From the IMG/VR virus record IMGVR_UViG_3300018475_000125: a DNA stretch of 64,000 nt; one strand, 5' to 3'. The position numbers and the translations under genes are program-made. Below are positions 3,092 through 26,241 of the stretch, one piece after another. The notes beneath the pieces were generated by a model. That model ran no database searches. It saw only the letters and a program-made list of their open reading frames with translations, and was not told the origin of the DNA. The stretch's first letter is position 1. Each line of letters begins with the position of its first letter. This stretch comes from a virus.

Positions 3092-3097
3092 ATTTAA

Positions 3098-3125: not shown

Positions 3126-3188
3126 TCTCTTGCAGACAGGCGGTTTTTACATAACATAGAGAGGAGTTATTAATAAAAGGAGGTTTTT

Positions 3189-3804: not shown

Positions 3805-3919
3805 ACAGCAAGGGCAGGGATGCCCTTCTTTTTTTTACTTAAAAACATAGGTTTTTGAGGCATATACCATGAGCAACTTATGGTGAGCTGTAAATGATCG
3901 CTTTTTTGAAGGAGAAAGT

Positions 3920-4306: not shown

Positions 4307-4875
4307 TCCGGTCCTTCTTTTTCCATCTGATGCTGTTAGTGGCTCTGCCGTTCTTCTGGACGGCGGAGCCGCAGCCGGTTCAAGCCACGGTGCCGGCTGT
4401 TACGGACGAGGTATGGCAGTTAAATTGGTTCGTAGCCTGTCTGAATAGGGTGGGGCTGGAATACTCCGCAGAGGAGGATGACCGGCTCCGGGACAGGGTG
4501 CTGAATTATACACTCTGGCTGCTGGAAACGCGGCCGGAAAGCTACTATTGGGTCTACGACTCTAAGACGGGAGTTTTAGAGAAGTTTGACCCGATGACAG
4601 GAACTCTGTGCTTGTCGTCGCTTTGCCGCGACGCGGGCACGCTGCGCCTCTTTCCTCTGGAGGCGCAGATCGTATGGGATATGTATAAGGTCCCGTATGA
4701 TCATCGGCAATACAGTACAGCCTGGGTCCTCTTGAAGGCTCAGACTGAATACTGTGTTGCCCGTGAGCCGGGGCGGTTCCGGCTTTGGATACTCGCGACG
4801 GAGGAACAACTCCGGAACGAGTACCCGGGTATTTTCCGGCATGAACCGGAGATCCGGGATAGAACAGAAGAATAA
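4303..4875 (+). CDS. secreted hypothetical protein (GTG start overlapping the upstream stop, GTGA)
   Basis: RBS AAAGGAGGT then GTG at 4303. Signal-peptide-like N-terminus (MIRSFFFHLMLLVALPFFW, then an ...A-T cleavage-like site). Confidence 0.4.
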   Translation: MIRSFFFHLMLLVALPFFWTAEPQPVQATVPAVTDEVWQLNWFVACLNRVGLEYSAEEDDRLRDRVLNYTLWLLETRPESYYWVYDSKTGVLEKFDPMTGTLCLSSLCRDAGTLRLFPLEAQIVWDMYKVPYDHRQYSTAWVLLKAQTEYCVAREPGRFRLWILATEEQLRNEYPGIFRHEPEIRDRTEE

Positions 4876-4891
4876 GGATAAGGATAAGTAG

Positions 4892-4917
4892 ACCCGGCAG
4901 TGTGCCGGGTTTTTTTC
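4892..4917 (+). terminator. rho-independent terminator
   Basis: Hairpin ACCCGGCA / TGCCGGGT followed by T7. Confidence 0.7.
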
Positions 4918-4972
4918 GTTTTCATTTAGCGGAGGCGCGTAGGGCGCTCCGTGTAATTTTAAGGAGAAAAAT

Positions 4973-6229
4973 ATGTTGTATTCTGAATTCGCTAAGAGTT
5001 TTAATAAGAAAGCCATTATGTACATTCATAATGGCGGATTCCATGCTGATGACGTTCTGGCTGTAGCACTGGTGAAGGCGGTGCTGCCCAGCGTTTGCTG
5101 GAAGCGGACCCGGCACGTCCCGGACGGTGCCTTCGCGGTGGATGTTGGTGGTGGTCCATACGACCACCACTCCGTGCCGCGCCCGCGGTGGGAGGAGTAT
5201 GACGCCCCGCATTGCGGGGCATCCCGTTTGTGGGTCGACCCCTTCTTTCAGGAGGTCTTCACTCGCCGGTTCGGCGTCGGACCGGCGGGAAGGCGGTGGA
5301 TGGAAGAGACCCTCTTCCTTCCGATTTGTCGGGAGGACAATGGACTGCCCAGCCAGGGCACCAATTTATTGGGTGTAGTCAGGCATATGAACCCTGGCTG
5401 GGACGCGGTCCCGGACCAGGATTTCGAAGATACTTGCTTCGCCGAGGCCGTGGCCTTGGCGGAGAAGGTGCTGGAGGCTTGTATCAATCAAGCTCGGTGC
5501 GTCGACAGGGCCCAGTACGTCCTGGAGGATATTCCGGACGAGGAGATCGTCCGGATCCCCGCCGGGTTGTCCGGCTGGAAGGACCGTTTGTCCGGTAAGA
5601 TCACGAAATTCGTGATCTATCCGGCTTTATCCGGTGGATGGTCGGTGCAAGCCGTACCACCCGCGGCGGACCGGGTGACGGAACAAAAGATTCCGCACCC
5701 GGCGTCCTGGCGAGGACTTCGCAACGAAGCCCTCTCGGAAGCCTCCGGACTTCCTGGCGGTATATTTTGCCACGCGTCTGGCTTCCTGTCTATCTGGCTG
5801 ACGGAAGCGGACGCGTGGCGGGCAGCCCGTTGGATGGTACACAACTCCGGTTCGATTTATGAACCGGAATTGTTTACGGAGGATGCCCTTGCGGATCTTC
5901 GGGACGACGACGTCCAGAAAATTCCCCCGGGACTTAAGGGCTGGGAGCCAATCCTGGCAAACTTCGCGAAGGCGAAGTTCGTGATCGATTGGTATCTTGG
6001 CGCCTGGCGGATCCGCGGTGTACCGTCAAGCCCGGAGCCAGGGGCGCCGGTTAAAGTGCCGTTCCCGAAAGAATGGCACAACAAGATAGAAGGGGAGCTG
6101 GTCCGGGAGACCGGTCTACCCGCCGCGATAGAGTGTCAAGAGGATTATGCCCTCTGGGGTACGATTCTTGACGCGCTGGATGCCGCGCGCCTGGCGATCA
6201 AGTTGTTTGAGGGTGACTCGAAAGAGTAA
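4973..6229 (+). CDS. MYG1/UPF0160-family metal-dependent phosphoesterase-like protein with a duplicated C-terminal module
   Basis: N-terminal HNGGFHADDVLA ... VDVGGGPYDHH matches the MYG1 signature (HxGxFHxDE ... VDVGG..YDHH). RBS AAGGAGAAAAAT. The C-terminal half contains two paralogous modules of about 90 aa (IPAGLSGWKD... and IPPGLKGWEP...). Confidence 0.55.
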   Translation: MLYSEFAKSFNKKAIMYIHNGGFHADDVLAVALVKAVLPSVCWKRTRHVPDGAFAVDVGGGPYDHHSVPRPRWEEYDAPHCGASRLWVDPFFQEVFTRRFGVGPAGRRWMEETLFLPICREDNGLPSQGTNLLGVVRHMNPGWDAVPDQDFEDTCFAEAVALAEKVLEACINQARCVDRAQYVLEDIPDEEIVRIPAGLSGWKDRLSGKITKFVIYPALSGGWSVQAVPPAADRVTEQKIPHPASWRGLRNEALSEASGLPGGIFCHASGFLSIWLTEADAWRAARWMVHNSGSIYEPELFTEDALADLRDDDVQKIPPGLKGWEPILANFAKAKFVIDWYLGAWRIRGVPSSPEPGAPVKVPFPKEWHNKIEGELVRETGLPAAIECQEDYALWGTILDALDAARLAIKLFEGDSKE

Positions 6230-6306
6230 CCTTCGCGAGACCCCAGTCCTCCGGGGGTGTAATAAATACGGAGTTTTTGTTTTTCTATTTTTTTCAGGAG
6301 AGAAAC

Positions 6307-6507
6307 ATGAACGAACAAGACGTTCTGAAGGTCCATGGGTCCCTGTCGACACTGCGTCAGCAGTTTCACGAGTTGGAAGATAAAATCGCCGAGTTGCTGG
6401 CGAATTTTTATGTCTCCCTCAAGTGGACTCAGCTGGACCTCGACGAAGAGTTGGGGCTGCGGGACGCACTGGAGCTGTTGACAGCCGAGCAGGCTGAAGA
6501 GCTGTAG
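6307..6507 (+). CDS. small acidic hypothetical protein (66 aa)
   Basis: ATG with RBS CAGGAGAGAAAC. Helical, acidic. Confidence 0.35.
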   Translation: MNEQDVLKVHGSLSTLRQQFHELEDKIAELLANFYVSLKWTQLDLDEELGLRDALELLTAEQAEEL

Positions 6508-6642
6508 TCTGTTCATAGCCGTGGTGAGGAGTCGTAGGGACCCTCGCCGCGTTTCTCTTTTTTTACCTATTGGAACTCTTTACAGGTTTGGTTTTTCTTT
6601 TATCATAGAAGGAGACACGATACTTTACAGAAAGGGAATGAG

Positions 6643-7344
6643 ATGGGAGTTGGGAATTTACATGGCTTAGAGAAATGCAGTCTGGTAGACTATCCGGGAA
6701 AGATCTCGGCAGTTCTTTTTTTCGGAGGCTGCAATCTGCGGTGCCCGTTCTGTCACAATCCGGCGCTGGTGCTGGATCCGGACAGTCAGCCGCAGGTGTC
6801 GTTTAATGAGTACATCCGGTTCCTGAACGGGCGTAAGGGATTACTGGACATGATCGTCTTTTCCGGAGGCGAACCGACATTGTGTCCAGATCTTGGGGAG
6901 TGGATCTCCGCCGCGAAGACACGGCATTTTGACACGAAGTTGGACACGAACGGAACAAGACCGGAGATCGTGCGGAAGGTGCTGGATGAGCTGAGCCACC
7001 TGTCGCTGGACTTTAAGACCGCTCCGGATCGGATGAGCGAGCTGGGAATGGATTTTCAGGAGAAGTGGCTGGAGACGCTGGATCTGGCGTGCTCCGCCCC
7101 GAACATCCAGCTGGAAGTCCGCACGACGATCCATCCGCAGATCCAGACGGCGGAAGACTTGAAGGCAATGGGCGTGCTTCTGAAAGAGCGCGGCATTACC
7201 CACTGGGTCTGGCAGCAGTTCCGCCGGATCGAGACGGTCGCGGCGGGTTTTGAGACATTGCCGATCTACACGCCGGATAACCTGTTCGATATGGCGGAAG
7301 AGATCCATTGTGATGAACTTCAAATCAAGATTCGCGGTATATAA
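6643..7344 (+). CDS. nrdG: anaerobic ribonucleotide reductase activating protein (radical SAM) NrdG
   Basis: CNLRCPFCHN (CxxxCxxC radical SAM cluster) near the N-terminus and GGEP. Size is typical for NrdG and the gene pairs with nrdD. Confidence 0.8.
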   Translation: MGVGNLHGLEKCSLVDYPGKISAVLFFGGCNLRCPFCHNPALVLDPDSQPQVSFNEYIRFLNGRKGLLDMIVFSGGEPTLCPDLGEWISAAKTRHFDTKLDTNGTRPEIVRKVLDELSHLSLDFKTAPDRMSELGMDFQEKWLETLDLACSAPNIQLEVRTTIHPQIQTAEDLKAMGVLLKERGITHWVWQQFRRIETVAAGFETLPIYTPDNLFDMAEEIHCDELQIKIRGI

Positions 7345-7347
7345 AAG

Positions 7348-7378
7348 AAGGGATCTGAAAAGGATCCCTTTTTTTTCG
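7348..7378 (+). terminator. rho-independent terminator
   Basis: Hairpin AAGGGATC / GATCCCTT followed by T8. Confidence 0.75.
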
Positions 7379-7606
7379 GGTGTGCTATTTACGAGGAAGG
7401 CGGTCTTTGTTGGCAAAGTAGTAACACACAAAGGGTAACTCGAGCAGGAAACCGATGACAGAGAGCAGGTTAGGAATGAGGCAAATAAAAAACATCCAGG
7501 TAAACATACGCAGTGCGGCGTAGGGGTTTCGATAGAACGCTGTCCTGTTACAGTTCTTGTTATTTTTTCAGGAATTTGTTAAACTTTTCTTCTGTGAGGG
7601 AAGTTT

Positions 7607-8119
7607 ATGGATCATGAAAGGCTTAAATCGGCACTGGAGTTATTGTGGGACATTCCCGGGGAATGGACCTGCGGGGAACTGATGTCCCGGTATCCGTCCT
7701 TTATCGATGCGCTGGCGGATGTGCTTCACGCGGCGGGCTACCGGTTTCCGCGGGTATTCTCGTGGGTGCATGAGATCGCGTCCTGGGCAGTGACCGCGGA
7801 GAAGGACAGGAAGTATTATCATATCTACCGGGCAATGGATCATCTTCCGGCGATGGACTCTGAATCGCTTTCGGAGGAGGAGTTTCGGCGGCGGATCGTT
7901 CGGTTATTAATAACCTTCGCGGAGCGTCCCGTACCGGGACAGGATCTTCGGGAGACACACCGGAGGACAGCCTACTTCTCCGCTCTGGTGCGGATACTGG
8001 ATCACCTGAAGCTCTGGGACAGCTCTCTGGCGGAGACGCAGGCATTGATCCGGGATATGAGATGGGGGCGGGTCACAAAAGACGGCATGGACAGGATCGA
8101 AGGACAGCTGAATGGATAA
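7607..8119 (+). CDS. hypothetical protein (170 aa)
   Basis: RBS GAGGGAAG. Its stop overlaps the RNAP gene start by 8 nt. Confidence 0.4.
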   Translation: MDHERLKSALELLWDIPGEWTCGELMSRYPSFIDALADVLHAAGYRFPRVFSWVHEIASWAVTAEKDRKYYHIYRAMDHLPAMDSESLSEEEFRRRIVRLLITFAERPVPGQDLRETHRRTAYFSALVRILDHLKLWDSSLAETQALIRDMRWGRVTKDGMDRIEGQLNG

Positions 8120-11100
8120 CTTGAAGGATTTTCGGGAAGTCGGGGATATTGAAGCTACCCGGCAGGCGATCTGGGATCAGGCATTGGAAGCGGCATCCTC
8201 GCTGGAGCCGGTGAGCAACAGCCGATACACACTGGGGCTGACGGACGTCCGCTGGCAGGGAAAGGACGTCTTCCCGAAGGCGGAGCATAAAAAGGCTCTG
8301 ATGAACGGGACCTATCTGACCCGAAAACTCTCCGGAACGTGGACGCTTACAGACAACGCTACCGGACAGCAGGTCGCCAAACGCCGTACGGTCATTGCGC
8401 ACGTGCCGTATATGACAGATATGGGGACCTTTGTACGCGGCGGGAATGACTACACGCTGGCGCACCAGCTGCGTCTGAAGCCGGGGGTCTACACCCGCTG
8501 GCTGGATAACGGTGAGCTGGAAGCGCATGTGAACGTTTCCAGGGGGCTGGGGCACAAGATCTATCTGGATCCGGCGTCCGGTATCTTCAAGCTCAAGATG
8601 GGGCAGGCTTCTGTTCCGGTAGCCGATGCACTGGAGATCCTCGGTGCTCCGCAGGATAAAATGCGCAAGGCGTGGGGCGAGGAGCTTTACCGGCAAAATA
8701 CATTCAAGCGCGATCCGAAAGCGCTCAACAAGCTCTACGAAAAACTGACTTACGGCAAGGGTGAGGCGCAGACGCAGGAAGAGAAGAAGCTCGCCATTCA
8801 GCAGGCATTCGCAAAGATGGGGCTGGATCCGCAGGTCTCGCAGGTGACGCTCGGTAAGCCGTACTCGGTCGTAGATCCGGATGTTATTCTGGATACGACC
8901 GCCAAGCTCCTGCGCATCAACAAGGGGCTTCAGGATACGGATTCCCGCGACGACATGGCTTTTCAGCGTCTGTTTGGTCCGGAGGATCTCATCGCGGATA
9001 AAATACGCTCTTCCGGTAATCTGATGCGGCAGTATCTCTGGCGGGCATCTCAGCGAAATGCACTGGATAAGATACCTGCGGGAGCTTTTGACGCGAATGT
9101 GGACAGTGTACTTATCGGCACGGGGCTGGGAATGCCTATCGAAGGGATCAACCCGATCGAAACGTTCGATAACCAGTTCCGCGTAACGCGCCTTGGCGAG
9201 GGCGGTATCGCTTCGCTGGACGCGATCCCGGCTTCTGCCAGAAACGTGCATCCTTCCCAGATGGGACTGATCGACCCGATCCGTACGCCGGAATCGCTGA
9301 AAGTCGGTGTGGATGCCCGTCTTGCCGGAAACGTCCGCAAGGGAAAGGACGGGCAGATCTACACACGGCTTCTGGATAAGAAAGGAAACAGTCAGTGGCG
9401 GTCTGCTACGGATATTGCGCAGTATGCCGTAGCGTTTCCGGGAGCGATGCAGTCGCCGTATAACTTCGTTCCGTGCGTGAAGGCCGGACGGATGCTGATG
9501 CTTCCGAAGGCGGAGATCGACTTTGCCTATCCGAATATGCAGTCGGCGCAGCATGCTACCGGGCGGCTGGTGCCGATGACTGCCAACGTAAAAGGGCAGC
9601 GTGCCGTGATGGCCGCCAGAATGCTGACGCAGGCGCTTCCGCTTCAGAACGCGGAGGCTCCGCTGGTCCAGACCGGGATGCCGGATGAGGAAGACAAGAG
9701 CTACGAGGAGCACTACGGCTCCCGCTTTGGGGCGATCCGAGCTACGGAACCGTGTCAGGTCATTGACGCGGGTCCGGATAAGGTGACGGTACGCACGAGG
9801 TCAGGAGAGACCAAAGATATTGAACTCTATCGGGATCTGGTATTCAACCGAAAGACGGGACTGTCTCAGCAGGCGGTAGTCCAGCCCGGCACGGTCCTGA
9901 AGCCGGGGGACCTGATCGCGCGTTCCAACTTCACGGACGACAAGGGTGCGATGGCTGTCGGGATGAATGCCAGGATCGCGTTCCTGCCGTATCAGGGACT
10001 GAACTTTGAAGATGCTATCGTGGTGAGCGAGAGCTTTGCGAAGCGGATGGCGTCGGAGCACTACTACAAGAACCGGCTTGCCGGAGGCTCGGACACGACA
10101 GTCGATACCCAGAAATTCCTTGCCATGAAGCCGGGAATGTACACGAAAGAGCAGACGGCGAACTTTACGGAGGATGGTTTGATCAAGCCGGGCACGGTAG
10201 TGCGTCCTGGCGATCCGCTTATCCTCGCCGTCACGAAGATCGAACCGACAGAGGCGCAGCGAAAGCTCGGAAGAAAGGCGCATTGGCGGGATTCTTCCGT
10301 GAAATGGGAGCACCATGACGACGGGATCGTGACGGATGTCTATCAGGACGCCAAGGGTGCGCAGGTCATCGTAAAATCCCGGCAGGAACTGCAGGTCGCG
10401 GATAAGATCTCCGGGCGGTACGGCAATAAGGGAGTCGTTTCCGCCATCGTTCCGGATGCTGAACTGCCTTCTTTGCCGGATGGAAGCAAGCCGGAGGTGC
10501 TTATGTCCCCTCTGGCGATCGTTGGACGCGTGAATCCAGGCTTTGTTTTGGAGACTCTGCTCGGAAAAATAGCGAAAGTGACCGGCAAACGCTATGCTCT
10601 GAAGGATTTTGGAGGCAGTACGGAGGATGTTGCGCGTTTTGTGGCGGAGGAAGCGAAGAAATACGGCATCAAAGACGTGGAAGACATGATCGATGACTCG
10701 GATCCGGACCATCCGAGGGTCATTCCGCAGGTCCTTAACGGCTACACCTACATGATGAAGCTCCATCACTCTGCGGAATCGAAGGCGCAGGGACGCGGAA
10801 TAGGCTCCTACACCAACGATCTTCAGCCTGCGAAGGGCGGAGATGACGGCGCGAAGAAGATCGGGATGCTGGAACTCTCCGCGCTGCTCAGTCACGGTGC
10901 TCTGAGCAACGTCGCGGACATGAAATACGTCAAAGGGCAGGAAAATCTGGACTATTGGCGGCAGTATACCGCCGGATACAACCCGCCGACACCCCGGATC
11001 CCTTACGTTTACCACAAGTTCGTGAATTTTTTGAAGGGTTCCGGCATTCACGTGCAGCGGGAAGGCTCCAGAGTCCACATTATGGCGCTGACCGCGAAGG

Positions 11101-12497
11101 ATGTGGACCAGATGACCGGCGATAGAGAGCTGAAAGGGGTCAAAGACCCGCGGACGGGACTCATGACGCTGCCTACAGTCGCCTGGGATGACAATTTGAA
11201 GGCACTTCCGGGCGGACTTTTTGATCCGAAGACCACCGGAGGTCACGCAGGGAACCAGTGGTCGTACATTCAGCTCGATCAGCCGTATCCGAACCCTGTC
11301 ATGGAGCAGCCTTTGCGCTTGATGCTCGGTTTGACAGAGAAAGAATTCCGCGATACACTGGCAGGGAAGCATAAATTATCCACAGGGACAGGTCCGGAAG
11401 CGCTTTACGCCGCTGCGAAGGCGCTGAATATCGAAAATGAGCTGATCCGAGCCAGAAATGACATAAAATCGGGCAGAAAAACGTATCGGGACGCTGCGGT
11501 CAAGCGGCTGGGCTACCTTAAATCCGCTCAGAGACTCAAACAGGAGCCGAAAGACTGGTTCCTGACGAAAGTTCCGGTCATTCCGCCCTATTTTCGTCCG
11601 GTTTCCCAGATGGGCGATAAAAAAATGCCGCTTGTTGCGGATGCGAACTACCTCTACAAACAGCTATTTGAAGCAAATCAGGCTTACAGGTATAATAGGC
11701 GCGTGTTTGGTGATGCAGAGTCCGGTGATCTGAGCTTGAACGTCTACGACTCATTCAAAGCGGTAACTGGGCTTGGTGAACCCACTACCTCGGAGCTTCA
11801 GCAGAAGGAAGTGAAGGGACTTTTGAAGTCGATATTCGGTTCCGGACCGAAATATTCGATGATGCAGACCCGTTTGCTCGGAACGCCGGTCGATATGGCG
11901 GGAAGAGGCGTCGTGGTGCCCAATCCGGACTACGATATGGATACGGTAGGCATTCCGGAGAACATCGCATGGGATACTTACAAGCCGTTTGTGATCCGGG
12001 AGCTTCGCAGACACGGCAGAGCGGGCATTCAGGCGATCAATGACGTGGAAAACCGCACGCCGGCAGCCCGTGAGATGCTTCAGAAGGTCATGGCATCACG
12101 TCCCGTGCTTGTAAACCGTGCTCCAACGCTCCACAAGTTCGGGATCATGGCTCTAATGCCGAAATTGATCAAAGGGGACGCCATCCGGGTGAATCCATTT
12201 GTTTATCCGGGCGCTGCGATGGATAATGACGGCGATACGATGGTTTTTCACGTCCCGTCTACGGATGAAGCGGCGCAGGAAGCGATCGAACGGATGCTTC
12301 CATCCAGAAACCTCCTTTCGCCGTCGGATTTTACCGTCATGCCGAAGATCACCAAGGAACATTTGATAGGACTCTACGAATCCACACGCCCCAGACCCGG
12401 AACGCCGACCCGAACCTTCCGAAATTCAGCCGATGTCGTCGCCGCCTGGCGCCGGGGCGATCTGGATCCGCATGAGAAAATAAGAGTAATGGAGTAA
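8112..12497 (+). CDS. multisubunit-type DNA-directed RNA polymerase, fused beta / beta-prime N-terminal (catalytic) subunit
   Basis: Beta-subunit motifs in order: GTFVRGGNDYTLAHQLRLKPGVY (compare E. coli [24 protein letters not shown]), PYQGLNFEDAIVVSE (NFEDA), SGRYGNKGVVS (GRHGNKG). These are followed in the same polypeptide by beta-prime motifs: VIPPYFRPV, NRAPTLHKFG (NRAPTLH), and PGAAMDNDGDTMVFHVP, a variant of the catalytic NADFDGD that keeps all three Asp. Confidence 0.8.
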   Translation: MDNLKDFREVGDIEATRQAIWDQALEAASSLEPVSNSRYTLGLTDVRWQGKDVFPKAEHKKALMNGTYLTRKLSGTWTLTDNATGQQVAKRRTVIAHVPYMTDMGTFVRGGNDYTLAHQLRLKPGVYTRWLDNGELEAHVNVSRGLGHKIYLDPASGIFKLKMGQASVPVADALEILGAPQDKMRKAWGEELYRQNTFKRDPKALNKLYEKLTYGKGEAQTQEEKKLAIQQAFAKMGLDPQVSQVTLGKPYSVVDPDVILDTTAKLLRINKGLQDTDSRDDMAFQRLFGPEDLIADKIRSSGNLMRQYLWRASQRNALDKIPAGAFDANVDSVLIGTGLGMPIEGINPIETFDNQFRVTRLGEGGIASLDAIPASARNVHPSQMGLIDPIRTPESLKVGVDARLAGNVRKGKDGQIYTRLLDKKGNSQWRSATDIAQYAVAFPGAMQSPYNFVPCVKAGRMLMLPKAEIDFAYPNMQSAQHATGRLVPMTANVKGQRAVMAARMLTQALPLQNAEAPLVQTGMPDEEDKSYEEHYGSRFGAIRATEPCQVIDAGPDKVTVRTRSGETKDIELYRDLVFNRKTGLSQQAVVQPGTVLKPGDLIARSNFTDDKGAMAVGMNARIAFLPYQGLNFEDAIVVSESFAKRMASEHYYKNRLAGGSDTTVDTQKFLAMKPGMYTKEQTANFTEDGLIKPGTVVRPGDPLILAVTKIEPTEAQRKLGRKAHWRDSSVKWEHHDDGIVTDVYQDAKGAQVIVKSRQELQVADKISGRYGNKGVVSAIVPDAELPSLPDGSKPEVLMSPLAIVGRVNPGFVLETLLGKIAKVTGKRYALKDFGGSTEDVARFVAEEAKKYGIKDVEDMIDDSDPDHPRVIPQVLNGYTYMMKLHHSAESKAQGRGIGSYTNDLQPAKGGDDGAKKIGMLELSALLSHGALSNVADMKYVKGQENLDYWRQYTAGYNPPTPRIPYVYHKFVNFLKGSGIHVQREGSRVHIMALTAKDVDQMTGDRELKGVKDPRTGLMTLPTVAWDDNLKALPGGLFDPKTTGGHAGNQWSYIQLDQPYPNPVMEQPLRLMLGLTEKEFRDTLAGKHKLSTGTGPEALYAAAKALNIENELIRARNDIKSGRKTYRDAAVKRLGYLKSAQRLKQEPKDWFLTKVPVIPPYFRPVSQMGDKKMPLVADANYLYKQLFEANQAYRYNRRVFGDAESGDLSLNVYDSFKAVTGLGEPTTSELQQKEVKGLLKSIFGSGPKYSMMQTRLLGTPVDMAGRGVVVPNPDYDMDTVGIPENIAWDTYKPFVIRELRRHGRAGIQAINDVENRTPAAREMLQKVMASRPVLVNRAPTLHKFGIMALMPKLIKGDAIRVNPFVYPGAAMDNDGDTMVFHVPSTDEAAQEAIERMLPSRNLLSPSDFTVMPKITKEHLIGLYESTRPRPGTPTRTFRNSADVVAAWRRGDLDPHEKIRVME

Positions 12498-16692: not shown

Positions 16693-19275
16693 ATGTTAAA
16701 AGTCATATCCAGCGATGCCTGGAAGGATAGTTTATGGAGCGACGAGACGCCGCGGTCGGCACTGATCAAGTGTTCGTCGCGCGGGGTGGTGGACCGGAAG
16801 TCGTTTGTGAAGCGGGCATGTGCTTCGTCAGACGAACTGCTCGACAAGTTCGCGTCCATGGAGAAGAAGCCGGGTGAAGAATATGTGCATTTGATCGGGC
16901 TGGGATCCACGGAAGCATATGGCCCGAACCGGAATGGCGACGGCTTTTCGGAGGAAGCGTGCCGGAAGTATCATCCTACTTTCGTAAAGGATGCGCGGGT
17001 CTATCGCGATCACAAAAACACGGATAAGTCCAAGAGCTACGGACTTGTGAAGGCGTCCGCGTTCAATGAGGCCATGTCCCGTGTGGAGCTGATCGTGGCG
17101 CTGAACGCTACCGAAGCCGCGGCGCGGGCTAATAACGGCTTGCTGGCGGATAAGGAGATGGAGAAACTGGCAGCCGGGAAGGATCTCCCGGTATCGATGG
17201 CCTGTCTTACAAATCCGGACTACCCGATCCTGACGCGTGATAAGGGTTACGTGCCGATCAAGGATATTCAGGTCGGTGATCTTGTGTGGACAAAAGACTC
17301 GGGTTGGAAACCAGTAACGGCGTTGAACCGCCGGAGATATACCGGGCAACTTTGCGAACTGCACATAACAGGGCTTCCCTTTCCGCTGGAGCTGACGGCG
17401 GATCATCTTATGTGGGCGAAGTGTCTGCGCAGTGACAATCCGCGAAAAGAGATCACACGTTTCTTTGCGGGGGACTCGGCGGAGGCAGGTCCGGAGTGGG
17501 TGCCGGCAGAGAAGCTGCAGATCGGTGATTACTTGTTTTATCGCGCTGTATCCAGACACACGGCTTTTGGTGCACTGGATGACACAGAGCTGGCAGCGGT
17601 TCTGGGATACTACATGGCGGAAGGCTATGTCAGTTTTTGCAAAGGGAATCCTAACACGGTAGCTTTCGCGTGTAACGTGAGCGACTCGCTCCCCAGAAAG
17701 GTTCCGAAGTATCTACACGAAATGTGGCCGGAGATTACAGTAAGTATCAGACCGCATCGCAGTTCAGTGCAGGGGCTGGTAGTTTCTGTGTACTCAGCGG
17801 AGCTTGCCCGATTTGTGAATAAGCTGATACGCACGGGCAGTCACGACAAGATTGTCCCGCCGGAAATCAGTAATGCCCGGCGGGAAGTACAGCTTGCGTT
17901 CCTCGGTGCATGGATCGACGGCGACGGCTACGTTGATGACAAAGGGGCGCATATCTCGACTTGCAGCCGGAGTCTTGCGCTGCAGGCTCGCGATTTGGGC
18001 ATGCAATTGGGTTACGCGGTGTCTATTTACTGCATAGATCATACCCGCTGTGCGACCAGTGGAATGAAGAACAGCGGAGTTGAGTTCCAGATCAATTTCG
18101 CGAAACCTGATCTCGCGGAGCTGGCAGCTTATTCGGACAAGATCAGCAGCAGGATACCCGAAGTTACAGATCGAGAGCGAGGCAGCAAGATACGTACGTA
18201 TCAGGACGGATTCTTTGCTTACAAGATTAAGGAGATCCGGTACCGCGCGGTTACGGATATTCAGACGTATAACTTTGAGGTCGCCGATGACCCTTCTTAC
18301 TCCGCGGCGGGATTGATCAGTCATAACTGCAGTGTCCCCTATGATATTTGTTCGTTTTGTGGAAATAAGGCGCAGACCACGGCGGAGTACTGCACCGGGA
18401 CACATGAAGGCGGGAAGTGCCGGGCTGGCGGACTGAAGCACCATATGGGAAAGATCGCCAGTGTGGATGGGAAACTGGTCCAGCTTTATGCGGATAACAC
18501 AAGACCGTCCTTTTTTGACATCTCGCATGTCTTCGTACCGGCCGATCGTATCGCGTACTCTTCCGGCAGACTCACGAAGCAGGCTTCCGCAGGTACACCA
18601 GTAACTTACGGAGGGGCAGAACTTGCCCGTCAGCTGTGCGTGACCGGGGGCGGACACTATATGGAGGATCCGGAGCAGGTCCACGCACTCCAGCTGCTGA
18701 AGAGAGCTGTTGCGGACTTCCATGCCAGACGGCTCTGGGAAAAGCGTGCTTCTTTCCTTTCCGTGCTGAACCACATTCCGCTGAAGAAGGTCGCCGAGGC
18801 GAAGCGGTATTCTTTTGACGCGGTACAGAAAGCATTTCAGGACCTCCATGTCTGCCTGACGCCCAGCCAGTTTGTGCAGTTGACCGGGGATCTTCCGCTG
18901 GAAAAGGCGGCACAGCTCGGAGAGATCATCGCTCCGCTTTCCAATGACTTCTTGGAGAAGTGCGCTGCAGCGCAGGCGCTTCCGAAACCGGCGGTCCACG
19001 CTCCGGAACCGCTTTTCCATTGGGCTGCTTCCCAGAATCTTCCGTCCATTCATCCGGACAGGTTCTTTAAGCAGGCTGCACTGGCGGCGGTTTCTCCGGC
19101 ACCTGATTTTACGCTGAGTCCTGAAGAAGTCTACGCTCTGGGCGAGGATCCTTCGATCCGGAAACTGGCGGCTCAGTATGCTCTGTATAAAGCGGCGTTT
19201 GTTGCCAATCTTCCGTCTTCGCTGCGGGAGACGGCAGCGGAGCTTTTGGTAGGGCGCGACTACACGGGGTTCTGA
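16693..19275 (+). CDS. putative prohead protease (HK97 S78-like) with C-terminal scaffold-like helical domain, interrupted by an intein
   Basis: N-extein RDHKNTDKSKSYGLVKASAFNE...VELIVAL resembles the HK97 gp4 region WNHNTDLVLGRT...LRVTIDL. PVSMA|C...|CSVPY flanks the intein like the S78 GMSFGF serine motif. The C-extein is long and alpha-helical. RBS AAAGGACAAAG. Confidence 0.45.
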   Translation: MLKVISSDAWKDSLWSDETPRSALIKCSSRGVVDRKSFVKRACASSDELLDKFASMEKKPGEEYVHLIGLGSTEAYGPNRNGDGFSEEACRKYHPTFVKDARVYRDHKNTDKSKSYGLVKASAFNEAMSRVELIVALNATEAAARANNGLLADKEMEKLAAGKDLPVSMACLTNPDYPILTRDKGYVPIKDIQVGDLVWTKDSGWKPVTALNRRRYTGQLCELHITGLPFPLELTADHLMWAKCLRSDNPRKEITRFFAGDSAEAGPEWVPAEKLQIGDYLFYRAVSRHTAFGALDDTELAAVLGYYMAEGYVSFCKGNPNTVAFACNVSDSLPRKVPKYLHEMWPEITVSIRPHRSSVQGLVVSVYSAELARFVNKLIRTGSHDKIVPPEISNARREVQLAFLGAWIDGDGYVDDKGAHISTCSRSLALQARDLGMQLGYAVSIYCIDHTRCATSGMKNSGVEFQINFAKPDLAELAAYSDKISSRIPEVTDRERGSKIRTYQDGFFAYKIKEIRYRAVTDIQTYNFEVADDPSYSAAGLISHNCSVPYDICSFCGNKAQTTAEYCTGTHEGGKCRAGGLKHHMGKIASVDGKLVQLYADNTRPSFFDISHVFVPADRIAYSSGRLTKQASAGTPVTYGGAELARQLCVTGGGHYMEDPEQVHALQLLKRAVADFHARRLWEKRASFLSVLNHIPLKKVAEAKRYSFDAVQKAFQDLHVCLTPSQFVQLTGDLPLEKAAQLGEIIAPLSNDFLEKCAAAQALPKPAVHAPEPLFHWAASQNLPSIHPDRFFKQAALAAVSPAPDFTLSPEEVYALGEDPSIRKLAAQYALYKAAFVANLPSSLRETAAELLVGRDYTGF
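17203..18327 (+). other. intein (375 aa) with LAGLIDADG homing endonuclease domain
   Basis: Begins with CLTNPDYPIL (Hint block A), contains two LAGLIDADG motifs (LAAVLGYYMAEGYV and LAFLGAWIDGDGYV), and ends with ...NFEVADDPSYSAAGLISHN followed by extein Cys (SHN|C). In frame with the host ORF. Confidence 0.8.
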
Positions 19276-19445
19276 CATGCAGCCGTTTGATAGTATTTCC
19301 GGCCCCTCCTACTATTCAGAAGCAGGCATCCCGAATCAGCTGGTTGCGGAGGTTTCTGCCGAGCAGCTGGGCGTGACGCCTGCGTCGCTCATCTGGTCAG
19401 ATCCGGGACGGGCAGCCAACATGATCCTTCAGAATCTGGTACGGG

Positions 19446-20370: not shown

Positions 20371-20858
20371 TGCACAAGATACGGAAGCTGCTGGTCGTCG
20401 TAGGGAAGGAAGAAGATACGCTCCATCCTGAATTGGACTGGGACCGGATCAAGGAAAGCCTTTCCGTGGATATGTACCACATTTGTGATGAAGCCGTCTG
20501 TATTCAGGAAGATCTTCCGGATGCCGCCGCAGTGATCCAGTTTGCGGGCTTTGAAAAGCCGTATTCGTGGACTTCCGAACTTGCTGCTGCACAGTGGGGT
20601 GCTCCTCCGGTATTTTACATTGAGCCGGGAGGAGCTGGTTTTTGTATTCGCTACGGTAAACGCAAAGAAGAGGGGCTGGCAGCACGCGCTGTTCCGGACG
20701 CACTTCGGATGCTTTATCAGGAAGGCTTGCAGGAGTACTATGCCCGGCACGCTGCCTTCCTTCTTGCCGCGTTTCTGGCGATGTTATGCGTGATCCTGAT
20801 CCACGGTGTAAAGCATACACTGGCACAGGATCCGCCAATGATCGAGGTTTCAGAATGA
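20370..20858 (+). CDS. hypothetical protein, C-terminal TM helix
   Basis: RBS GGAGGAATTTTA. TAATG overlap with the upstream gene. Confidence 0.4.
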   Translation: MHKIRKLLVVVGKEEDTLHPELDWDRIKESLSVDMYHICDEAVCIQEDLPDAAAVIQFAGFEKPYSWTSELAAAQWGAPPVFYIEPGGAGFCIRYGKRKEEGLAARAVPDALRMLYQEGLQEYYARHAAFLLAAFLAMLCVILIHGVKHTLAQDPPMIEVSE

Positions 20859-21808
20859 ATTCGGATTTCGCGGCTTCCTTTAACCGGTCTCCGGACTGGA
20901 AGTGGAAGCGTGCTCAAAGCATTGTGTCCGGAAGCGGTCCGGCAGCAACGCCGTTCTGGGATACTGAGAACGGCTGTCAGTGGATCCGCCGGGCGGAAGC
21001 GTTCCTTCAGTCGCTGGCGCGGGAAGAAGACCCTGTTATTAATAATGAGCTGATCATTATGTACGGGGACATTTACACAGCGTGGTCCATTTATACGGAC
21101 ACATCCAGCAATTACCGATTTGAGCTGGAGGGGATGATCCTGGCTCGTGTGGAGCGGGAAGAGCTGGCAGTCCGGATCGATATTCCGATTGCGGCCATTA
21201 CCGCTTTTGAGGAGCTTTTCTTTGATGTCCGCGGGAAACTGGAATCCGAATCCTATATTTTGAATTACGTCATTGGTCCGGATATTCAGCGTTTGAAGGA
21301 GAGCAATGTCGGCGCACTATGGAAGCTGTTCGGCTACTATCAGGGTCCGGAAGTCCTTCGCGCGGTCATTTCCAGAACAGTGAATCCGACATTCGCCATG
21401 ACGCCGGATGCGGTAGGTGCCCGGCTGAACGAGGATATTGCCGGTTCCTTCAAGATCTCCTGCGCCATTGCCGCCAAGAAAGCAGGCGGGGGAAACATGG
21501 CGGACAGACAGCTTCTTCAGCTGTTTGCCAAAGTTATGGAAGTGGACAAGATGGAAGACCTTTCCTCCGGATCCTCCAAAGGGCAGATCGCGGAACATAT
21601 TCAGGCGATGCTCGGTACGCTGGGACTTTCCGTCGGCGGGATCCCGAAGACCAACCCGCTTTCCGACTACAAGCATAAACCGGTCGAGCCTCAGTTTCAT
21701 GAGCTTGTCAGCCTGACTCTGACAGGTGAAGCGGAATCGCTGAAAGAGGCCGCCGACTTCAAGTTTCCGATCCCGACCAATCGGGGTCTTCCAACAGCAA
21801 AGGATTAA
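20855..21808 (+). CDS. hypothetical protein (317 aa)
   Basis: ATGA overlap with the upstream gene. No recognised domain. Confidence 0.4.
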   Translation: MNSDFAASFNRSPDWKWKRAQSIVSGSGPAATPFWDTENGCQWIRRAEAFLQSLAREEDPVINNELIIMYGDIYTAWSIYTDTSSNYRFELEGMILARVEREELAVRIDIPIAAITAFEELFFDVRGKLESESYILNYVIGPDIQRLKESNVGALWKLFGYYQGPEVLRAVISRTVNPTFAMTPDAVGARLNEDIAGSFKISCAIAAKKAGGGNMADRQLLQLFAKVMEVDKMEDLSSGSSKGQIAEHIQAMLGTLGLSVGGIPKTNPLSDYKHKPVEPQFHELVSLTLTGEAESLKEAADFKFPIPTNRGLPTAKD

Positions 21809-21810
21809 TC

Positions 21811-23850
21811 ATGCCGTCGATCAATACTCAGGAAAGAGAACAGCTCAGTGCAGCGGTCGAGAAGATCAGCGATTACTGTGCGGAGGGCTGTTCCCCCAAT
21901 ACCGCTATTATTAAGACTGCGAAGGAGATGAATTTGACTCCGGACCGTCTTCCGATACTCGTCAACGCCTACAATGCAGGCGCAACCGCAGATCATTGGG
22001 CACAGCACGATTCGGTGCGCTCAAAGACTGCTTCGTTCCCCATTGCCAATCTTGCGAAGATTCGGAGCGAGCTCTACCCGGATCAGGTCAAGAAAGCGGC
22101 GGCACGGCAGCGTCCCATGCGGGCGGACAATACGTTCAGTCTGTCAGCTGGTGCCCTTTTTCAGAAGGATCCGCTGGATTGCTACCGCGGACAGGTTCCT
22201 ATGCAGAAGACCGCTTCTGTTCCTTCTGCGGATCAGCTCTCCAATACGAACCGGGATCTCCGGCTTCAGCTTCGTTTTACGCAGGAGCAGACGGATGCCG
22301 CGATGGAGCTGGCGAACGCCGAGCTTTATGACCGGATGGATAAACTGGCCGGGATCCTTCGCCGTCCGGAAATGCCTTCGTTTGGCGATATGTGCAAGAC
22401 CGCGGCGGCAGTCTACGGCAAAAAGGGCGGGGAGGTCATGCAGTATATTGCGGAAACGTATCCAACGGTCAAGGTAGCAAAATACTCTCCCAGTACGGAA
22501 CTGCTTCCGGCGACGCATGACTTCTTCAAGCAGTTCGAGGAGGTCCTCAACTCGCTGGATACCTGCGGAAAACTGAAGAACACGCAGGTCATCGTCCGTT
22601 CCAAATGTGCTGCTGTCGAGCAGGAGATGGACGAGGCGTGGAAGTCCGAGATCCACGGTTCTGAGATGCACCGCGCCCTTCTGACTCCGATCCAGGTCAA
22701 GAAAGCTGCTCTGGAAATGAGAAAGGAGGCCTTCCGTGAGGAGCTGGATGCTACGCGCCCTTTCTCGCGTCTGGAAACGATGCTCCATCCTGAATGGCAG
22801 GGGGCTACGGAGCGGGAATACGGTATTCTGAATACGCTGAACGATCCGCTTCACGAAGCGCGTATGCGTAAGATCATGAATGAGTCGCTGTTCATAGACA
22901 TCATGAACTCGGATGAGTTCTTGAAGGAGCAGGATCCGGAGGAAGTTCTGGAAGCGTACAACGACCTTCTGGAGGTAGCTCCGCATCTTCGCGGCAAGAA
23001 GATCCTTGTCCGTCAGGCGCTCAAGGAATATCTTGCTTCAGGCACTCTGGATCTTCCGACAGCGGGACAGCTCACCAAGATGGACGCGGAGGAAGCAGCA
23101 AAGCAGGATCGCCGGTCGCAGGCACAGGCGGACCAGGCTGCCCGGTATGCCGATCAGCGTCAGCGTAAGGAACAATCTGAAAAAGAACTGGCTCAGCGCG
23201 AGCAGTTTGAAAAAGCACGCTGGGAGGCGCAGAAAGAACAGGCTGCCGAGGATCGTGCATTACGCCGAAGTGAGGCGAAACAGCGTCAGAGCAACTGGGA
23301 AGCGGAGCAGCGGACTCGTAAAGAAGAAGCGGAGCAGCGGCAGCGGAACTGGAAGAGGGAACAGAAACTGCGTAAAGCCGAGGCAGCCCAGCGTCAGGTG
23401 AACTGGCAGGCAGATTTCGATGCGCGTCAACGCGAGGCAAACCAGCGTCAGAGCAACTGGAAGGCGGAACAGCAGACGCGCAAAGATGAGGCAGCTCAGC
23501 GTCAAAAGAACTGGGAAGCCGATCAGCTGCTGCGTAGGGATATTGCGCGGAGCGATTATGAGCCTAAGCGGGAAGCACAGGATTATCGACGTGCGTATGA
23601 TGAGTATAAGGAGCAGCGGCGTAAATGGGAACGGAGGCAGGAGGATACTGCCAGAAGAGTTTCATTGGCACGGCAGATGGCTGAAAAAGATTCGCAGTTT
23701 GAGCAGTTCTATCGCGACGCATTAGCGGCGCAGCATAAAGGGTATGTATGGGAACAGGGTGACACCAACGAACCTTTCAACGGCAACTGGGTGGCTGATA
23801 CGGAGCCGACGTTTTCACCTCCAAGTGTGCCCGCGAGTCCGACCTTTTAA
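21811..23850 (+). CDS. coiled-coil protein with 11-residue QRQxNWxAEQxTRKxEA repeats (scaffold-like?)
   Basis: RBS AAAGGATTAATC. The C-terminal third is highly charged with about six tandem peptide repeats. Confidence 0.45.
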   Translation: MPSINTQEREQLSAAVEKISDYCAEGCSPNTAIIKTAKEMNLTPDRLPILVNAYNAGATADHWAQHDSVRSKTASFPIANLAKIRSELYPDQVKKAAARQRPMRADNTFSLSAGALFQKDPLDCYRGQVPMQKTASVPSADQLSNTNRDLRLQLRFTQEQTDAAMELANAELYDRMDKLAGILRRPEMPSFGDMCKTAAAVYGKKGGEVMQYIAETYPTVKVAKYSPSTELLPATHDFFKQFEEVLNSLDTCGKLKNTQVIVRSKCAAVEQEMDEAWKSEIHGSEMHRALLTPIQVKKAALEMRKEAFREELDATRPFSRLETMLHPEWQGATEREYGILNTLNDPLHEARMRKIMNESLFIDIMNSDEFLKEQDPEEVLEAYNDLLEVAPHLRGKKILVRQALKEYLASGTLDLPTAGQLTKMDAEEAAKQDRRSQAQADQAARYADQRQRKEQSEKELAQREQFEKARWEAQKEQAAEDRALRRSEAKQRQSNWEAEQRTRKEEAEQRQRNWKREQKLRKAEAAQRQVNWQADFDARQREANQRQSNWKAEQQTRKDEAAQRQKNWEADQLLRRDIARSDYEPKREAQDYRRAYDEYKEQRRKWERRQEDTARRVSLARQMAEKDSQFEQFYRDALAAQHKGYVWEQGDTNEPFNGNWVADTEPTFSPPSVPASPTF

Positions 23851-23875
23851 CGGTCTTCACTCCGCATAAACTAAC

Positions 23876-23903
23876 AAAAAAGGCGCTTTTCAGCGCCTTT
23901 TTG
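23876..23903. terminator. bidirectional rho-independent terminator between convergent genes
   Basis: A6 then AGGCGCT tttc AGCGCCT then T5, so it can function on either strand. Confidence 0.75.
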
Positions 23904-23916
23904 TTATTAATAATTG

Positions 23917-26142
23917 TTACTTACTGTTATCACTCAGATCCAGCGGTTCCAGTGTTTCGTAATCTGCCTGATTCAGCCGGTTGCGTTTCAGGAAGAGGAC
24001 GACATCGCCGAGGATCTCGAAGAGTTTTTTGAGGTTGGCTTCCAGTTCCGGCAGGTTCTTGGGACCATAGATCTCCTTGAACTGATCGCCTTTCCAGTAA
24101 AAGCGGAAGAGGAGGTCTCCTGCTTCCGTCATGGCGCGAGTCAGTTCTGCGGTCTGCTCGTCGATCATGGAGTCTGTATCACCGGAGGTGTAGAGACTCT
24201 TGAGCATGGAGACATCGAAGATGTCTTTCTGTCCGCTCTGGATCGCCTTATTGACCGCCGCGACATCCTGCGACGCATAGTCGGAGTCGATCGAAATGTA
24301 AGGATCAGCTGAGACATCGTGAGATTTTGTAGTGGAGTATTCCTGCCCGGAAGGGCCTGCTGCCAGACGGTCAGTCAGGATGCCGACAGGGGAATCGTTG
24401 ACCTGCGGGATCGGCGGCGTGACCAGTTCCGCCCGCTTCAGGAAGACTTTACAGGCGCGGGTCGGTTCTGCTCCCGCTTTTTTTAGCAGAGCCTTTGCGG
24501 TTTTTTCGCGAAGTCCGTAATCCTCGACCAGCGATTTGAAACCTTCAAAAGTACTGATCCGGGGACCCTGGTTCAGGCGGCATTCGTCGCCCCAGACGGA
24601 GACTTTCAGCGGTTCCAGTCCGGCATAGGCGGATTCCTTGATCTTCTGTGCTTTTACTGCCTGAGGAAGCTGGTCCAGACCGTTACTTTTCTGGATCAGA
24701 TCCGAATTCAGGTGCAGGTCCAGCAGTTTCATATCCTTGGGAAGTTCCATTGTGTGCTTTGAGACACGGAAGTCGCTTCCTTTCGGAGTTCTGCGTATCG
24801 TCCATTCCATAGAGCGGCAATTATGCCGGTAGCCGTCGTTATACCCGTAGCCGTAGCGCAGCGGAGGTTCTTCCTGTGTTTCGGTTTTGCAGATGATACC
24901 TCTTGTGTAATTATTGAACGGACCATGTACTTCACAGCATCCGCGAAGGACCGCGAAGCAGTCGCTGGGACTGCCGAACGGAAGATTATCGACCCATTTC
25001 ACATAGTCGGCTGTCGGATATTCTTTCGTGCACCAGATCTCGGTCCCGGCGCACTCGCAGTATTCATGACTGGACGGGTTCACGACCAGCATAAAGGGAC
25101 CTTCCGCATCGGAAGAGCGCAGAACGACCATACGGCGGGATTTGCCGGGTTCTACCAACACGTCGTAGATGCCGGTGCCTCTCGGGTTGAAAATGTTTGC
25201 CTTGTTTCCGGAAGCGTCGATGACTTTGGTAACTTCCTCGTCACGGCGGTCATCCTGAACAAGGTATCCTTCCCGCAGCAGCTTTTCTTTTTCTTTATCG
25301 GAGAGTCCGAAGGGGAGAGACGAACCAGAGATGGAAACGGAATAAGAAATGACCTGTACGGAGTTGGCGTATTTGACGTTCGGCTCCGGGAGCGGTTTTA
25401 CTCTCAGCGCAGCGGATTTCCGAAGAATATCACGTTCCGTGAATTCCCGCCGAAGAGCATCGGTTCCTCCGGGGTGGACCTGTTCAAAGGCGGCTTTGAT
25501 CAGCGGATAGGTATCCAGCATTTCCAGTGTGCGCTTCAGCCCGCCGTAGGACGCATATTTGATATGACGAAGCGGATTCAGCTTTTGATGAAGCGAAAAG
25601 GCTTTCTTAGCGAGACTGAATTTGGAATTCCGGGCAATATCCCGGTAGACCGCGTGCCATTCGCGCGGAATGGCAGAGGCGTACTTGGTCGGGATGTCTA
25701 CCAGATCGGTCAGATCCGGTGTGGAAGAACCGGGTGTGGATTTCGGAGCACTGTCGCCGATCATCATCGGCTTTCGGCGAAAGATCTCATTAAGCCACGC
25801 TTCTTTCAGCGGCACCCACAAGTTCTGATCTGCCAGCCGCAGAAGTTCGTGTCCCTTGATCTCTCCGTTGATGCAGAAGGTCGGCGAGAAGAGCTGCATA
25901 CCGTTTACTTTGAATCCGGTCACGCCCAGCACTTTTGTGTCGTCCTCATTTCTCTCCACGACCTGAAAGCCTTGTTCGTACGGCATCAGTGACGGTGCTT
26001 TATCCTGTAGATAGGTATGAGTGAGCTGCCCGAACATTTCTTCCAGCGGAACATCGTTTCCATCACCTCCGAGGGCGGCAGTTTTGTTCAGTACGCGGTT
26101 CCGGATCGATGTTTTCAGTGTATAAGTATCCTTTGTTCGCAT
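23917..26142 (-). CDS. large hypothetical virion protein (741 aa; portal-sized, unassigned)
   Basis: Long ORF. Start chosen at the internal Met (MRTKDTYTL...) preceded by GGAAGAAATT. No motif recognised. Confidence 0.4.
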   Translation of the reverse strand: MRTKDTYTLKTSIRNRVLNKTAALGGDGNDVPLEEMFGQLTHTYLQDKAPSLMPYEQGFQVVERNEDDTKVLGVTGFKVNGMQLFSPTFCINGEIKGHELLRLADQNLWVPLKEAWLNEIFRRKPMMIGDSAPKSTPGSSTPDLTDLVDIPTKYASAIPREWHAVYRDIARNSKFSLAKKAFSLHQKLNPLRHIKYASYGGLKRTLEMLDTYPLIKAAFEQVHPGGTDALRREFTERDILRKSAALRVKPLPEPNVKYANSVQVISYSVSISGSSLPFGLSDKEKEKLLREGYLVQDDRRDEEVTKVIDASGNKANIFNPRGTGIYDVLVEPGKSRRMVVLRSSDAEGPFMLVVNPSSHEYCECAGTEIWCTKEYPTADYVKWVDNLPFGSPSDCFAVLRGCCEVHGPFNNYTRGIICKTETQEEPPLRYGYGYNDGYRHNCRSMEWTIRRTPKGSDFRVSKHTMELPKDMKLLDLHLNSDLIQKSNGLDQLPQAVKAQKIKESAYAGLEPLKVSVWGDECRLNQGPRISTFEGFKSLVEDYGLREKTAKALLKKAGAEPTRACKVFLKRAELVTPPIPQVNDSPVGILTDRLAAGPSGQEYSTTKSHDVSADPYISIDSDYASQDVAAVNKAIQSGQKDIFDVSMLKSLYTSGDTDSMIDEQTAELTRAMTEAGDLLFRFYWKGDQFKEIYGPKNLPELEANLKKLFEILGDVVLFLKRNRLNQADYETLEPLDLSDNSK

Positions 26143-26241
26143 AATTTCTTCCGTATTACAGATGCCTGATTTGCGCGGCATGAAGCCTACAGCACGACGT
26201 ATAATTGCGCAGTATACCTGTTTTCCGGGAAAAGGACAAAA

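Follow-up and report, generated by a model that had tools for sequence, protein, structure and literature searches.

IMG/VR virus record IMGVR_UViG_3300018475_000125 was analysed as a stretch of 64,000 nucleotides, referred to below as the window. The window comes from a large myovirus encoding NrdD, a fused RNA polymerase beta/beta', tail sheath and baseplate wedge proteins. An open reading frame (ORF) at 16693..19275 on the plus strand, with an ATG start and an AAGGA sequence approximately 9 nt upstream, was confirmed in the window; it specifies a precursor of 860 amino acid residues (94.9 kDa) made up of an N-extein, an intein and a C-extein and followed by a stop codon. The host gene is very probably that of a head-maturation serine protease in an uncultivated jumbo myovirus, and a mobile class-1 intein interrupts it. 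In several samples, public gene callers have annotated the same gene, with an identical protein, on a total of 24 or more metagenome contigs, the longest being 170 kb, and an 860-residue cluster representative that is 98% identical to the ORF product is also on record. Because the protein recurs on this many contigs from different samples, it is no assembly artefact. An antisense ORF of 494 residues (17794-19278, minus strand) with an Arg-rich translation runs opposite the second half of the gene and is most likely a spurious frame.

The N-extein (residues 1-170; 16693..17202, plus strand, as are all features below) contains the first half of the protease fold with the NRNGDGF, His and Ser motifs. 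The intein (residues 171-545; 17203..18327) runs from Cys1 to Asn375 and has a mass of 42.0 kDa (375 residues), and the C-extein (residues 546-860; 18328..19272) begins at the +1 residue, Cys546. Joined to each other, the exteins give a protein of 485 residues and 52.9 kDa.

Judged by its sequence, the segment of residues 171-545 is a canonical class-1 LAGLIDADG intein, the anatomy and exact boundaries of which can be read directly. It begins with CLTNPDYPIL and ends with YSAAGLISHN. Cys171 (Cys1) directly follows VSMA and is conserved in all aligned carriers, while LISHN545 followed by C546 provides the terminal His-Asn and a Cys at +1. Block B is LELTADHLMW (TxxH motif, residues 232-241; 17386..17415), the T..H of which is retained in mini-intein alleles. 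Two LAGLIDADG motifs, LAAVLGYYMAEGYV (residues 300-313; 17590..17631) and LAFLGAWIDGDGYV (residues 401-414; 17893..17934), each keep their acidic residue, and blocks F/G, YNFEVADDPSYSAAGLISHN, form the His-Asn end (18268..18327). The preliminary description of this DNA, made by eye from the sequence, had already recorded two such motifs, and Pfam LAGLIDADG_3 matches residues 398-446 (E = 4.7e-7) with a score of 30.4 bits, its cutoff being 22.5. An alignment with PI-PkoII covers the endonuclease domain, and the NCBIfam models for intein-containing RNR, RFC, V-ATPase (VMA) and Tes proteins match through their intein portions only. By tblastn, all 375 residues match annotated inteins of cultured phages from end to end at 21-25% identity, the hosts of these being DNA methyltransferases, NrdD, helicases and RNR alpha. 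We infer from these features that the intein is capable of splicing and of homing endonuclease activity. No second copy of it was found in the 64-kb window. Foreign origin was also sought in base composition, which does not mark the intein out (GC 0.53 versus 0.57 in the exteins). A model named 'head maturation protease' (phrog_18299) weakly matches the C-terminal splicing region (residues 492-539; E = 0.026) and may itself include an intein-bearing protease.

Profiles of the splicing domain are less generous than that of the endonuclease and count against the assignment: Pfam Hint_2 scores 26.6 bits, just below its cutoff of 28.4, Hint scores 14.1, and NCBIfam intein_Cterm (TIGR01443; residues 525-546) reaches 13 bits against a cutoff of 15.6. 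In the proposed check against intein models, the endonuclease domain thus lies above its cutoff and Hint_2 and TIGR01443 fall just short of theirs; a HINT splicing domain is supported by the full-length tblastn matches to annotated inteins and by Hint_2 being above threshold in related intein carriers. Such scores might point to a Hint/LAGLIDADG remnant that has decayed and no longer splices, or to an intein-like domain of bacterial type, in which case the 860-residue protein would work unspliced or the gene would be dead. We consider this hardly credible, since Cys1, the block B Thr and His, the penultimate His, the terminal Asn and Cys+1 are all present and both LAGLIDADG acidic residues are intact. 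Furthermore, the recurrence of the identical ORF on the 24 or more contigs, from different samples and up to 170 kb in length, indicates that it belongs to a circulating phage, and dozens of diverged carriers retain the same boundary residues.

Excision of the intein leaves a 485-residue product with more than 1000 homologues. It can be aligned over its whole length with hundreds of intein-free ones, and the closest homologues are 480-508 residues in length and match at 100% query coverage and up to 72% identity. In the alignment of the spliced extein the gap shuts exactly between SMA and C (VSMA↓CSVPY, where the arrow marks the insertion point), the junction lying in the peptide context ...LPVSMACSVPYDICSF... 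Both the boundaries that had been read by eye (C171...SHN545↓C546) and the reconstituted junction PVSMA-CSVPY are therefore borne out by intein-free homologues. The match to phrog_2774 rises from 39 to 55 bits upon removal of the intein and now extends across the junction. A syntenic intein-free locus (L006) carries the empty site ...AGTATGGCG↓TGTAGTGTACCG..., and tblastn matches of Salmonella phage Arash gp222, Vibrio D69 and a 230-kb relative (L013) each fall into two pieces flanking 17203-18327. The +1 Cys is native to the family, being present in 57 of 61 intein-free sequences, the other four having Ala.

The population pattern was observed over a much larger set. An exhaustive phmmer search with the whole ORF against 1.84 billion representatives gave 5533 matches at E ≤ 1e-3, 771 of them at E ≤ 1e-30. 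The best are dozens of proteins of 830-900 residues that align in a single alignment through N-extein, intein and C-extein (33-49% identity), and proteins of 1200-1600 residues also occur among the matches. We mapped 267 family members to a hidden Markov model (HMM) of the intein-free family using hmmsearch domain coordinates, counting as an insertion any stretch of 80 residues or more. At least one insertion is present in 110 of the 267, nine members having two and one having three. The sample favours carriers, as the intein formed part of the query. Among the best 120 matches to the exteins only, six contain an intein and 114 have none.

Five recurrent sites were recognised, designated a to e and numbered here on the spliced extein. 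Site a follows residue 77 (EAYG↓(C/S)NRNGDGF; 14 cases) and site b directly follows H107 (YRDH↓CN..; four cases). Site c, which is occupied by the intein described here, follows residue 170 (VSM(A/S)↓C) and accounts for 93 cases, 14 of these being minis of 128 to less than 250 residues and 79 being of 250 residues or more. Site d precedes C178, the first Cys of a zinc-ribbon-like cluster (six cases), and site e precedes C192, the third Cys of that cluster (one case). The automatic mapping assigned three further large insertions (in P0357, P0387 and P0313) to none of these classes; inspection by eye showed that of P0313 to consist of two inteins, at sites c and e. Sites a and c are both filled in P0251, P0254, P0255, P0278, P0279, P0322 and P0379, sites b and d in P0334, and sites a and d in P0383, while the 1605-residue P0261 has inteins at a, c and e. 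Pfam Hint, Intein_splicing and LAGLIDADG domains were found in the tested representatives of every site.

At least two intein lineages share site c, one starting with C..(D/N)P..P(I/V)LT as in the present case (70 cases) and the other with C..AGTLV (14 cases). In two pairs of proteins, one with an intein and the other intein-free, the exteins are 95-96% identical (P0016 versus P0009; P0021 versus P0011). All five recurrent sites lie at invariant motifs, and on this evidence the protease family appears as an intein hot spot. A homing cycle predicts just such a range of alleles: full-size, degenerate, mini and empty. It had been suggested beforehand that an intein in a capsid maturation protease would be uncommon; we found no such case in the literature searched, and within the family itself the intein is no rarity, since inteins recur at five sites. 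The intein-free P0011, 95% identical to the intein-bearing P0021, has Ala in place of the +1 Cys (SMA↓ARVPFD), which could leave the site unfit for splicing after re-invasion.

The host protein was modelled in its spliced form with AlphaFold2 (61 sequences; mean predicted local distance difference test score 80.8). The model consists of a confident alpha/beta domain at about residues 60-236, a disordered linker (239-281) and a confident helical domain (285-485). Foldseek ranks T4 gp21 (5jbl) first to third against the PDB and returns prohead proteases from BFVD, and the modelled extein thus displays the characteristic prohead-protease fold that was anticipated for it. The anticipated family was a different matter: the N-extein had been likened to the HK97-type (S78) proteases, an affiliation that the sequence does not bear out, since no Pfam family is matched at E ≤ 10. 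In fold, the relatives are T4 gp21, which is the nearest solved one, and the assemblins.

The residues of interest are distributed over both exteins. The motif GPNRNGDGF (16921..16947), in which N79, N81 and D83 are invariant, is where site a lies in relatives. The predicted catalytic His is H107 (codon 17011..17013), in VYRDHKNTD (RDHKNTD being residues 105-111), immediately after which site b is found. The invariant Ser of LPVSMA, S168 (codon 17194..17196), is the predicted nucleophile and stands two residues before the intein. In the C-extein, the zinc-ribbon-like cluster DICSFCGNKAQTTAEYCTGTHEGGKC (residues 551-576; 18343..18420) has four Cys and includes sites d and e of relatives, and the motif FFDISHVFVPADRIAY (18511..18558) contains D609, which is D234 of the extein and the predicted third member of the triad.

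A wide-family alignment extending from jumbo phages to actinophages, the latter at 24-27% identity, shows N79, N81, D83, F97, H107, N109, G117, S168, M169, C178, S179, C181, N183, A185, C192, F232, F233, S236, V238, P241, A242 and D243 to be invariant. Position 234 is always Asp or Glu, with Glu in the actinophage homologues. H107 is the sole invariant His across the wide family, H66 and H94 being invariant in the jumbo-phage subfamily only. Similarly, all four residues of the Cys cluster (C178, C181, C192 and C201) are invariant in the jumbo-phage subfamily and three of them across the wide family; the fourth, C201, is apparently replaced by His in distant members, giving C-x-H for the last ligand.

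T4-like gp21 was also modelled, and the order of its secondary-structure elements was compared with that of the extein. Both models have a long strand, the NRN loop, a long helix and a short strand with the His 3-4 residues on, then a beta-hairpin, a helix, eight residues, the Ser strand and, later, an acidic strand. The Ser strand reads GVS140SRG in T4 and PVS168MAC here (VSMG in actinophages), and the acidic strand VGVD168AV in T4 and FFD234IS here. In these models H107, S168 and D/E234 occupy the same secondary-structure positions as T4 H85, S140 and D168. The positions of H85 and S140 were confirmed in the T4 gp21 sequence, and we take these two to be catalytic residues. The triad of T4-type prohead proteases is His-Ser-Asp (PMC5694885). 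The models accordingly favour two earlier proposals, that RDHKNTD is the protease His motif, as it holds the only His invariant across the wide family at the place of T4 His85, and that the junction is the catalytic-serine motif, as VSM(A/G) holds an invariant Ser at the place of T4 Ser140. A catalytic triad of H107, S168 and D234 is, on these models, well supported, though not proven. Protease activity, the roles of the individual residues and the binding of zinc by the Cys cluster are predicted.

Several results weigh against a protease and should be set beside the model. The Foldseek E-value of the 5jbl match is only about 0.1. At the sequence level no Pfam family, Peptidase_S77 (PF03420) and S78 included, is found for the spliced extein even at E ≤ 10; NCBIfam and PHROGs likewise give no link to a known protease; no PDB sequence is matched by phmmer or hmmsearch, either with the single sequence or with the 61-sequence profile; and hhalign against T4 gp21 and a 20-sequence gp21 family alignment, local and global, gives probabilities of about 1% or less. 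The catalytic equivalence is argued from secondary-structure order and conservation, and no major capsid or portal gene was recognised beside the protease gene in the window. Pfam scans of the homologues Bxz1 gp95, Stormageddon gp13, E3 gp77, Finch gp17, Arash gp222 and D69 likewise returned no protease family. The sole 'match' of these sequence and profile comparisons, six residues long, would equate SSRGV (residues 28-32; 16774-16788) with VSSRGL of T4; we regard it as a coincidence, given its position N-terminal of the His and the low confidence of the model there.

One might therefore ask whether the extein is a structural or scaffold head protein that has a protease fold without being an enzyme, with the intein merely interrupting a conserved structural motif. 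The lack of a sequence-level match to any protease family would agree with this, as would the large extra C-terminal domain and the recovery of Arash gp222 from virions (85% coverage in the virion proteome), where it is labelled 'structural protein' only; diverged protease paralogues are, moreover, known from giant phages, e.g., gp117 of SPN3US (PMC5694885). We nevertheless find such a pseudo-protease unlikely. His, Ser and the acidic residue are strictly kept from jumbo phages to actinophages at approximately 25% identity, inteins of relatives lie directly beside H107 and S168, which is the typical kind of intein site, and neither the window nor the homologous head modules of actinophages showed another recognisable candidate for a prohead protease.

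The genomic context of the homologues is that of head genes. In Stormageddon, E3, Finch and Bxz1 the homologous gene falls between those for the portal and the major head proteins, and two actinophage homologues have been annotated as capsid maturation or prohead protease. The Arash gene lies in the head module, and in the 230-kb relative an Arash-type major capsid gene is situated 3 kb downstream of the protease gene. Homologues of the spliced extein occur on contigs of 200-230 kb. The major capsid gene was sought beside the protease gene of the window by PHROGs and Pfam analysis of the neighbours, by BLASTP comparison of the Arash capsid protein with a neighbour of 317 residues, and by tblastn, for which proteins of Arash, D69 and L013 were used. 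None of these revealed it; the neighbours gave no annotation, and no homologue of the L013 major capsid gene was found in the 64 kb. Gene order around the protease differs between the window and its relatives. For instance, comparison of window positions 20855-26181 with L013 positions 3088-8710 reveals three genes whose side of the protease differs, being upstream in the relative and downstream here; one of them is inverted. A 679-residue protein encoded at 21811-23850 has a long, repetitive, Gln/Arg/Glu-rich, coiled-coil-like stretch with repeated 'QRQ.NW.AEQ' units; its homologue adjoins the protease in the 230-kb relative, and it could be a scaffold candidate.

Beyond the catalytic domain, the low-confidence linker (extein residues 239-281; 18532..18660) is variable except for a conserved (G/S)AELA motif (residues 640-645; 18610-18627), the Glu of which is present in 53 of 61 sequences. 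Since T4-type proteases cleave after Glu, this motif may be an autocleavage site. The C-terminal helical domain (extein residues 285-485, 22 kDa; 18670..19272) ends in a conserved tail, YALYK..F...LLVGRDY. A long helical C-extein had been proposed to be a fused scaffold; the helical domain of approximately 200 residues is confidently modelled, while searches with it gave no informative match and none to any known scaffold. Together with its tail it may serve as a scaffold-like module or as one that targets the protease to the capsid or prohead.

The position of the intein suggests how the precursor would be matured. It interrupts the nucleophile strand after A170, two residues beyond S168, and leaves H107 and S168 on the N-extein and the acidic residue and Cys cluster on the C-extein, so that an active enzyme should require splicing. 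According to the scheme that we propose, a 95-kDa precursor is made in which the S168-bearing beta-strand is broken after A170 by a 375-residue HINT and LAGLIDADG element. Splicing would proceed by an N-S acyl shift at Cys171, trans-thioesterification to Cys546, cyclisation of Asn545, and an S-N shift to complete the ligation; the outcome would be a free endonuclease of 42 kDa and a protease of 53 kDa in which VSMA-CSVPY forms the junction. A contiguous fold uniting H107, S168, D234 and the four-Cys insert would exist in the spliced protein alone, which would then serve as protease in head maturation. During co-infection, alleles without an intein would be cut by the endonuclease and would acquire a copy of the intein, and homing of this kind probably explains why the same site is filled in diverged lineages and is also found with mini-inteins and in near-identical empty alleles.

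A regulatory explanation was also considered, in which the intein is a conditional switch and splicing sensitive to redox state, zinc or assembly keeps the protease inert until the prohead is built. Since the nucleophile strand is broken, the precursor should be inactive; Cys1 and Cys+1 adjoin the four-Cys cluster; endonuclease-less mini-inteins are kept at the same site in several lineages; and relatives also have inteins right after the catalytic His. There is also a parallel in T4 gp21, which is itself made in a self-inhibited form, reportedly blocked by its own N-terminus (PMC9958956). We nonetheless judge a switch to be quite unlikely, because the intein is evidently dispensable: 114 of the best 120 extein matches are without one, and alleles 95-96% identical to one another exist with and without it. 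The full-size, mini and empty pattern fits an ordinary homing cycle, and there was no sign of conditional splicing. A stronger version, in which inteins at the catalytic Ser, the His and the Cys cluster have been recruited to serve as obligatory post-translational locks and capsid maturation is timed by splicing, itself perhaps responsive to redox state, zinc or the assembly of the prohead, would account for the persistence of the endonuclease-less mini-inteins; we hold it to be very unlikely. A head-maturation protease interrupted by a mobile intein remains our preferred reading of the gene.

Other genes of the window have features of their own. Upstream of the RNA polymerase gene are those for NrdD (360-2003; intein-free), a protein with an MYG1/UPF0160-like exonuclease domain (4973-6229) and a radical-SAM protein resembling NrdG/QueE (6643-7344). 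The RNA polymerase is specified by a single ORF of 1461 residues (8112-12497) that joins beta (Rpb2 domains 3 and 6) and beta' (Rpb1 domain 2) and whose product is a fused, compact phage RNA polymerase of the multisubunit type. In a relative, the RNA polymerase beta' fragment (P0244) has an intein of its own.

Inteins have mostly been catalogued in enzymes of replication, repair, nucleotide metabolism and packaging, and the present case extends their host range to a virion-maturation protease. It also brings to light a protease family so far invisible to sequence annotation. Jumbo phages and over 200 sequenced genomes of actinophages contain genes of this family, which can now be annotated. 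The insertion sites independently mark residues predicted to be functional, namely the His, the Ser, the NRNGDGF loop and the zinc-cluster Cys. The full-size, mini and empty alleles constitute a natural set for study of the homing cycle, the compact natural mini-inteins of 128-149 residues are predicted to work in a Cys-rich context, and the system lends itself to testing whether a protease can be activated at a time set by splicing.

Among known proteases, T4 gp21 (MEROPS S77, PF03420, PDB 5JBL) has the nearest solved fold, with no detectable sequence or profile similarity. Its VNRNKRLY shares 'NRN' with GPNRNGDGF at the same place in the fold, whereas it has neither the four-Cys zinc-ribbon-like insert (approximately 35-40 residues after the Ser strand) nor the linker and the 200-residue helical C-terminal domain. 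No report of an intein in T4-type proteases was found in the literature searched. HK97 gp4 (MEROPS S78) and the herpesvirus assemblins (S21) represent the wider clan of capsid maturation serine proteases. The former differs in that Pfam Peptidase_S78 has no match here. In the assemblins the third catalytic residue is His, whereas here it is predicted to be Asp or Glu as in T4. In a protease-scaffold fusion of the herpesvirus UL26 or P2 gpO type, the scaffold part would here be the C-terminal domain, for which such a role is putative. Stormageddon gp13 (Gordonia), E3 gp77 (Rhodococcus), Bxz1 gp95 (Mycobacterium) and phrog_2774 are distant homologues of the N-terminal 250 residues, and the three phage proteins share the same invariant residues, including the Cys cluster. 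The actinophage homologues, most of which bear the annotation 'hypothetical', are 900-1370 residues in length and have unrelated C-terminal extensions; the records seen show no intein in them.

With respect to the intein, PI-PkoII (the Pol-2 intein of Thermococcus kodakarensis, PDB 2CW7) and phage class-1 inteins have the same architecture and boundary chemistry. The related inteins that we found in cultured phages all reside in nucleotide-metabolism or DNA-processing enzymes and none in a protease, in contrast to the host described here. The literature searched on inteins in prohead, head or capsid maturation proteases and in jumbo or huge phages describes no such case, though one may still be published elsewhere. 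A survey of actinobacteriophages lists the terminase large subunit, portal, minor capsid and tape measure proteins and many enzymes as intein hosts and reports a sporadic distribution of mini and full inteins in virion-assembly genes (bioRxiv 10.1101/2025.01.02.630785). The word 'protease' occurs in it 0 times, whereas the present family has five sites and up to three inteins per gene. The mechanism of the intein is thus conventional and its host is unusual and heavily invaded; what is new is the type of host, the hot spot of five sites and a previously unannotated family of zinc-ribbon-bearing proteases.

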